Positions 9,788 to 10,305 of a stretch of DNA of 19,664 nucleotides are shown here, in pieces. The DNA comes from a virus (taxonomy: Monodnaviria; Loebvirae; Hofneiviricota; Faserviricetes; Tubulavirales; Inoviridae), in IMG/VR virus record IMGVR_UViG_2529292909_000007, positions 1 to 19,664 of that record; one strand, written 5' to 3'. The translations under genes were made by a program, and so were the position numbers. The stretch's first letter is position 1; every line of letters starts with the position of its first letter. A model generated the notes under the pieces. The model searched no databases and was not told the origin of the DNA. It worked only from the letters and a program-made list of their open reading frames with translations.

Positions 9788-9945
9788 GTATCAAATGAGT
9801 TGCCGATTTTATAATAAATGACTAATTATTGCACAATCGGTATCAAATAGACCTTATCCGCACATCTAGCCATCACCTGTTTTATTTCAGTATCTTACAG
9901 GTGATTTCACCTCCTTTCACTAAAACCCTTGTCGGTATCAAATGA
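9788..9945 (+). repeat. three direct repeats GTATCAAAT(G/A)(A/G) near the prophage end; candidate transposase end-binding sites
   Basis: Copies at 9788-9798, 9840-9850 and 9935-9945, same orientation, spaced 52 and 95 bp, between the repressor stop and the host fimbrial gene. Confidence 0.5.
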
Positions 9946-9954
9946 TTCACCTGG

Positions 9955-10305
9955 TTATACTATACCCAAACCGGAGGCCGTATTGCTTCCTTCATCCAGT
10001 TTCAACAAAGTATTATTTTCTGCATCCTCAATACCGTTAAATGCAACCCGAACCCCCGTTGTCCCTTTGCTGCATTCACTTAACGTAATCTGAAAAGGGA
10101 CGGCTGGACTTGTGCTACCGGTCGTTGGAAATTGTCTGGCACTGTTTTTTTGGAGATCTACGGTAAAATTAAGCGAATCCGATGAGACTGTGCAGCCATA
10201 ATCGAGGACGCGCCCGCTAATTTTAATAACGCTATCTGCGGATAAAGCAGAATAGGTGGTTAACCCCAGACATAAACCGAGGAAAATAATGTTATTGTAT
10301 TTCAT
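9955..10305 (-). pseudogene. ydeS: fimbrial subunit truncated at its C-terminus (116 aa), apparently by the prophage junction
   Basis: Signal peptide plus pilin-like N-terminal region, but too short for a complete subunit; lies directly downstream of the usher fragment. Symbol is from recalled K-12 synteny and is tentative. Confidence 0.55.

Follow-up and report, generated by a model that had tools for sequence, protein, structure and literature searches.

Bacteriophage Mu and its relatives are the closest described systems for the locus considered here. In Mu, operator binding is shared by the N-terminus of the transposase and the repressor, and between Mu and D108 a change of immunity region brings a different transposase N-terminus, the end-recognition part of the protein and the ends themselves staying constant. 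The left end of Mu also holds a pac signal and an HU site. Each Mu end carries three MuA sites, and cleavage takes place at a terminal CA, with joining to target phosphates 5 bp apart (PMC3145075). Our sequence comparison places the CGAAA cores of Mu at nt 22, 127 and 167 of attL and at nt 22 and 44 of attR, with R3 inverted. The report on phage KS10 credits Mu, FluMu, Pnm1 and Sp18 with six putative transposase-binding sites each (PMC2628397). Sp18, a Mu-like prophage of E. coli O157:H7 Sakai, has been reported as intact and packaged (PMC2669165), and copies related to it are known from loci that vary and from within Stx phages (PMC10132054, PMC7430833).

Here, we analysed a 19,664-bp stretch of DNA (hereafter the window), which is the entire contig AIFY01000031.1 (GCA_000249655.2), and we consider it very likely that three short repeats in it are where the DDE transposase of an Sp18-type Mu-like prophage recognises attL, making them counterparts of Mu L1, L2 and L3. 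The sequence GTATCAAAT has exactly three copies in the window, starting at 9788, 9840 and 9935, all in the same orientation on the plus strand between the repressor and the host fimbrial gene, as the earlier note had described. They occupy the final 172 bp of the prophage, between the stop of the repressor gene (9713) and the truncated ydeS, and with the next two bases they read GTATCAAATGA (9788-9798), GTATCAAATAG (9840-9850) and GTATCAAATGA (9935-9945). Read inward from the prophage end, the sites lie on the minus strand:

9935 to 9945, minus strand: end-proximal, L1-like site, reading TCATTTGATACCGA inward, with TTGATAC at nt 19-25 from the terminus.
9840 to 9850, minus strand: middle, L2-like site, with TTGATAC at nt 114-120 from the terminus.
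9788 to 9798, minus strand: inner, L3-like site, with TTGATAC at nt 166-172 from the terminus.
9872 to 9880 and 9897 to 9905, no strand assigned: perfect 9-bp inverted repeat ATCACCTGT/ACAGGTGAT with a 16-nt gap, in the spacer between the L1-like and L2-like sites.

By simple arithmetic, about 0.15 exact copies of GTATCAAAT are expected in 19.7 kb counting both strands, and here three are packed into 158 bp. A 9-mer present three times appeared in 13 of 20,000 shuffles of 9788-9960, and the only other spot in the window where a 9-mer occurs three times is a coding tandem repeat near 15,650. A chance origin of the repeats in AT-rich non-coding DNA would agree with the count obtained when one mismatch is allowed, which sits at the shuffle level (6 found in the window against 5.99 expected). 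Against it stand the clustering of the exact copies and the comparisons given below, in which the cores are kept in a phage whose transposase is 81% identical, are mirrored at the other end and are missing from the empty site; shuffles, conservation and aligned sites together effectively refute chance, to which we assign next to no probability. Promoter and terminator scanning of 8950-9990 returned nothing in the repeat region. The inverted repeat in the spacer, kept in the E. coli variants and not in the Yersinia phage described below, is possibly a candidate host-factor or packaging site.

The left end of the prophage can be placed to the base, since phage homology stops at 9959, in elements located at many unrelated loci, and host homology starts at 9960 (megablast against 5,426 complete E. 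coli genomes):

9956 to 9959, plus strand: left terminus of the prophage, ...GGTTATA-3', at the homology switch 9959/9960.
9960 to 10305, minus strand: truncated host fimbrial gene ydeS (Pfam Fimbrial), matching K-12 from 9960.

The junction reads ...GGTTATA|C and falls ten bases past the CA dinucleotide at 9948-9949 to which the earlier note had drawn attention; that CA is present, 4 nt past the 9-mer core, but it is not the terminus, the true end being the TA at 9958-9959. Cleavage and transfer of a 3'-OH would accordingly be predicted at A9959 of the plus strand. From 9960 to 12242 the window corresponds to ydeS-ydeT-yneL of K-12 at 99.9% identity, and the uninterrupted ydeS locus of K-12, a comparison that the earlier note had proposed, is free of the repeats at the corresponding position. 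The 116-aa ORF of ydeS ends at a stop codon (9955-9957) provided by the phage end. The annotation is hereby settled: the prophage boundary is 9959|9960, and ydeS is truncated because the prophage end sits there.

Adjoining the repeats, the order of genes from the left end is repressor, ner, transposase A and ATPase B:

9168 to 9713, plus strand: immunity repressor of the XRE/HTH_3 type, 181 aa (Pfam HTH_3), unrelated to Mu c.
9014 to 9037, no strand assigned: operator-region palindrome TTGATAAC-N8-GTTATCAA, adjoining ner and belonging to an exchangeable immunity module.
8754 to 8984, minus strand: ner homologue, 76 aa (Pfam HTH_35), 45% identical to Mu Ner.
6664 to 8751, minus strand: DDE transposase A, 695 aa, the presumed repeat binder (Pfam HTH_Tnp_Mu_1 and Mu-transpos_C).
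5658 to 6589, minus strand: MuB-like ATPase (Pfam AAA_22 and Phage-MuB_C), 48% identical to Mu B.

The transposase matches the Pfam models Mu-transpos_C (E = 4.5e-17) and HTH_Tnp_Mu_1 (E = 1.6e-8) and is 22% identical to MuA in a full-length BLASTP comparison (E = 3e-14). Its N-terminus matches MuA domain I-alpha, the enhancer- and operator-binding domain (PDB 1tns), while the Pfam model HTH_Tnp_Mu_2, which represents the end-binding domain I-beta of MuA, has no match in the protein and the rve models of Pfam score only below threshold on it. The catalytic region fits RSV integrase (E about 1e-4) better than the MuA core (E about 0.3-0.8). D269 and D336 of MuA are the aligned counterparts of D308 and D374, and the alignment with RSV integrase suggests E414 as the third member, making D308, D374 and E414 the candidate catalytic residues; the second Asp and the Glu would then be separated by 39 residues, compared with 55 in MuA.

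The MuB-like gene of the window is broken by a 1-bp deletion near 5842/5843 into ORFs of 269 and 65 aa. In a sister assembly (AIFZ01000020.1 of GCA_000249675.2), which is 99.9% identical to the window contig, the same gene is intact and encodes 310 aa. Because of this, and because five indels separate the two assemblies over 15.4 kb, the deletion in the window may be an assembly or sequencing error. The sister assembly was traced through two markers, the truncated YdeS and a small ORF crossing an internal deletion, and it shares both the ydeS junction and that deletion with the window. The same ydeS junction is absent from the RefSeq complete E. coli genomes, and an exact-match scan for it in genome and metagenome contigs gave 0 matches.

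The right end of the element lies outside the window, position 1 of which is about 1.75 kb short of it by comparison with L001, a full-length, 99%-identical copy in NZ_CP145714.1. We were able to read both ends in six full copies, namely L001 (in bcsA), L003 (in a diguanylate cyclase gene), L004 (citD-citE), L005 (sgrR), L010 (inside an Stx2c phage) and L012 (Sp18 itself, in sorM of O157 Sakai). Inward, the left end reads TATAACCAGGTGAATCATTTGATACCGA..., or TGTAACC... in Sp18, L006 and L010, and the right end of the full copies reads TATAGCGCGGCGATTTTTTTGATACCGATTTGCATTTCATTTGATACCGC...CTTATTTGATACTAAATC. In these copies TTGATAC stands at nt 19, 114 and 166 from the left terminus and at nt 19, 41 and 76 from the right terminus, pointing inward in every case, and R1 of the right end has the same register as the L1-like site of the window. 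In L001 (20544-20623), and likewise in L002, L003 and L005, RefSeq places an 80-nt "tRNA-OTHER" feature between the genes for head morphogenesis and virion morphogenesis, on the opposite strand; the window has lost this region.

Three inverted copies of the core are thus found at the right end of all six full-length relatives. They are also found in the sister assembly, whose right end reads ...GGTATCAAAAAAATCGCCGCGCTATA; the matching inverted repeats that the earlier note expected at the opposite end therefore exist for the very insertion from which the note started. Its suggestion of a likeness to L1-L3 of Mu is likewise borne out by the inverted triplets at the relatives' right ends and by the adjoining repressor-ner-A-B genes. 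An intact 38.6-kb copy contains TTTGATAC seven times, six of them at the ends, with about 0.6 expected per strand. In an attL and attR alignment of the window, three further E. coli immunity variants and the Yersinia phage vB_YpM_5, none of the six cores varies, in contrast to the diverging spacers and flanks, and the distances of R1-R3 from the terminus are unchanged. The ends of Sp18 have these six cores as well; specifically, the L2-like and L3-like cores are invariant across the E. coli immunity variants, Sp18 and vB_YpM_5, with divergent spacers. From twelve aligned sites comes the core ATTTGATAC, flanked on both sides by a few positions where preferences are weaker.

These 12 sites also bear on whether the repeats might be bound by a host architectural protein such as IHF, or serve as pac signals, instead of being transposase sites. 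The IHF consensus is WATCAANNNNTTR, which includes WATCAA, and the TATCAA within the core resembles that part of the consensus; for pac there is the precedent of Mu, with a pac signal and an HU site at its left end. However, the TTR expected 4 nt after WATCAA is not consistently conserved among the 12 aligned sites as judged by eye, so that the sites depart from WATCAANNNNTTR and were rejected as IHF sites, and the conserved G and AT that flank the core are not IHF positions. Moreover, pac would be expected at one end only, whereas the sites are mirror-symmetric at both. We regard a host-protein or packaging role of the repeats as highly improbable, and transposase recognition remains the preferred reading.

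The cores also resemble the operator region, and the earlier note had proposed that one DNA-binding specificity is used at both places. In its strongest form, this would make the repeats additional operator sites, bound by the repressor or Ner with the same specificity as the TTGATA palindrome. The ner-repressor intergenic region does contain TTGATAAC and GTTATCAA together with further copies of TTGATA and TTGATC, and a Mu-style sharing of the operator by the transposase N-terminus would be in keeping with the structural matches of that region (PDB 1tns and 1g4d). Variation among relatives nevertheless argues against it. The end repeats are unchanged in relatives whose repressors are about 42% identical to that of the window and in Sp18, with a 42% identical repressor and a 43% identical Ner, and they are retained in Sp18 and the Yersinia phage, in which the Ner and repressor proteins differ from those of the window and the operator regions have no TTGATA. 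Furthermore, there is no regulatory rationale for an inverted triplet at the distant right end that keeps this register from the terminus. Extra operator sites are accordingly a very unlikely explanation, and the proposal of a specificity common to operator and ends did not hold up.

The operator instead belongs to an exchangeable immunity module. E. coli variants that have the same Ner with different repressors keep the Ner-proximal palindrome. Between the window (8617-8751, minus strand) and Sp18 (L012, 2192-2330), identity of the transposase is 40% over its initial 45 aa and 86-100% in each later 45-residue segment; these first ~45 aa vary together with Ner, the repressor and the operator. 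The most parsimonious reading of this mosaic is the Mu/D108 arrangement, in which an exchangeable N-terminus would read the enhancer and a conserved body the ends. Given such an arrangement, the likeness between TTGATAA of the operator and TTGATAC of the ends is not evidence of shared specificity.

Evidence that the elements move comes from their flanks. Six independent insertions have perfect 4-bp flanking duplications (GACG, TACG, CATG, AACA, GATG and TAAA), situated immediately outside the TATA or TGTA termini. A duplication of 5 bp was considered by shifting the boundary by 1 nt, and no such shift fits all six insertions; only 4 bp does, the fifth base being mismatched in all but one insertion, where it matches by chance. 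The earlier note's expectation of flanking 5-bp direct repeats is therefore contradicted, as the relatives have 4 bp and the copy in the window has no duplication. A 4-bp "duplication due to insertion of Mu" is annotated independently in GenBank LC727881, and our literature search found no description of a 4-bp duplication in Mu-like phages.

The 5'-TG...CA-3' termini expected of Mu-type ends are absent from the window. In four independent insertions both termini read 5'-TATA inward; the left end does so in the window and five other copies, as do all E. coli right ends, and TG occurs at the left end only in Sp18, L006 and L010. The 3'-terminal dinucleotide is TA at each right end examined and, at the left, either TA (the window type) or CA (Sp18, L006 and L010). 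Since the copies in which both termini are TA are found at different loci, they have evidently moved. Near-identical elements are flanked by elyC, bcsA, citD, sgrR, RHS, xdhA, paaA, flgL, sorM, Stx phages and others, and insertion at so many unrelated loci points to transposition and not to site-specific integration. Since the TA terminus and the 4-bp duplication both differ from Mu, the details of the Mu reaction are not simply transferable to these elements.

The copy in the window is a defective, degraded Sp18-type transposable prophage without matching flanks. Relative to L001 it has lost about 27.5 kb at the junction 5386|5387, which joins the region after B to tail-fibre genes; with it went the semi-essential early genes, those for lysis and the head, and most of those for the tail. 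The sister assembly shows what adjoins the two ends: ydeS on the left (K-12 1,588,494, ascending) and, beyond the junction 17132|17133 of AIFZ01000020.1, narV on the right (K-12 1,536,369, descending). Since about 52 kb separates these two genes in K-12, some 52 kb of K-12-equivalent DNA appears to be absent between the ends. The flanking 4-mers, ATAG and AGTG, are mismatched, and there is no duplication around this copy. Such flanks might have resulted from an adjacent deletion by intramolecular replicative transposition or, alternatively, from recombination between two copies in the same orientation, both of which are possible.

Other parts of the window deserve mention in their own right. 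A Gin-like serine invertase gene (2741-3313) lies beside tail-fibre and tail-fibre-assembly genes, and this region (2741-4586) matches L001 piecewise and with the pieces arranged differently, the pattern that an invertible host-range segment should give. On the other side of the host DNA, K-12 homology ends at 12242, just before hipA, and 12243-19664 is occupied by a prophage of the filamentous (Inovirus-like) kind. Among its products are a Zot-like assembly ATPase (13801-14925), a secretin that is split in the window (12519-13517 and 13382-13798) and is 426 aa long in the sister assembly, and a gene-V-type ssDNA-binding protein (18280-18627). A 564-aa ORF without a Pfam match (15251-16945) is putatively pIII-like by its position; within it, an 18-bp tandem repeat of about 12 copies (15645-15865) probably encodes a Gly/Thr-rich linker.

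The sites' positions and orientation, their register and their conservation, taken together with the exact termini, the 4-bp duplications and the element's mobility among genomes, suggest a transposition mechanism that can be outlined by analogy with Mu. One transposase monomer would bind each site of ~13-19 bp (core YATTTGATACYR, read inward), and monomers on the left sites and on the three inverted right sites would pair both ends in a transpososome. The enzyme would nick after the terminal A (A9959 on the plus strand), and the 3'-OH ends would be joined to target phosphates staggered by 4 bp. End sites would be read by the conserved body of the transposase, while an enhancer within the operator region is probably the target of its exchangeable first ~45 aa, following the pattern of Mu and D108. 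The positional data are direct; physical binding, the cleavage position and the role of the enhancer are what we infer from them.

Whether Sp18-type phages transpose by a variant of the Mu reaction that is distinct in mechanism and so far lacks a formal description is, in our estimation, an evenly balanced question. The features that may jointly set such a version apart are the 4-bp stagger, tolerance of TA-3' in copies that move naturally, R1-R3 all in direct orientation, the integrase-like spacing of 39 residues and the immunity-linked N-terminal module. The Sp18 family and its six putative sites are already known, and the 4-bp stagger and TA terminus are only mildly novel. The elements make up a common Mu-like family in E. 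coli and Yersinia with the end architecture of Mu, another recognition sequence, a 4-bp stagger and TA termini. They might serve as a natural comparison system for how the geometry of a DDE transpososome sets the length of the target duplication, and for how strict the requirement for a terminal CA is.

Compared with Mu, the element shares three sites per end, an end-proximal core some 20 nt in from each terminus, and a left end beside repressor, ner, A and B, as well as insertion at many loci. The spacing is also alike, L1 to L3 spanning 147 bp here and 145 bp in Mu, and R1 to R2 being 22 bp in both. In contrast, the core is TTTGATAC here and CGAAA(A/G) in Mu; R3 is direct here and inverted in Mu; the terminus is TA (CA at some relatives' left ends), whereas CA is invariant in Mu; and the target duplication is 4 bp instead of 5 bp. 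The proteins differ as well, the transposase being 22% identical to MuA with a spacing of 39 as opposed to 55 residues between the second Asp and the Glu, and the XRE-type repressor being unrelated to Mu c. With respect to Mu and D108, the window and Sp18 show the same pattern of a transposase N-terminus that changes with the immunity region while the ends stay constant, although the repressor here is no paralogue of the transposase N-terminal domain and any competition at a shared enhancer/operator would be hypothetical.

The Yersinia phages vB_YpM_5 and vB_YpM_6 (Muvirus; PMC10434027) have a transposase 81% identical to that of the window, keep the six TTTGATAC cores and have R1-R3 at 19, 41 and 76 from the terminus, as here, but they differ in the spacers, the terminal 16 nt and the operator, and in a circular-permuted record that collapses the ends with host DNA. 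In that record (vB_YpM_5, MT374853, 4654-4732), a stretch of about 80 bp connects the right end to the left in a "circular" genome; the stretch is most likely host DNA that was packaged and then collapsed in assembly, making the circular topology an artefact. A further close system is Sp18 of O157:H7 Sakai, together with its relatives in STEC genomes; the Sp18 transposase is 93% identical and its attL and attR are nearly identical, with the same six sites. Sp18 also has a 4-bp duplication (TAAA), and it shares late genes, com-mom and an invertible tail-fibre segment with the window-type element. Sp18 differs in its left terminus, TG as opposed to the TA of the window, and in its immunity module, and it is the copy in the window that has been deleted and rearranged.
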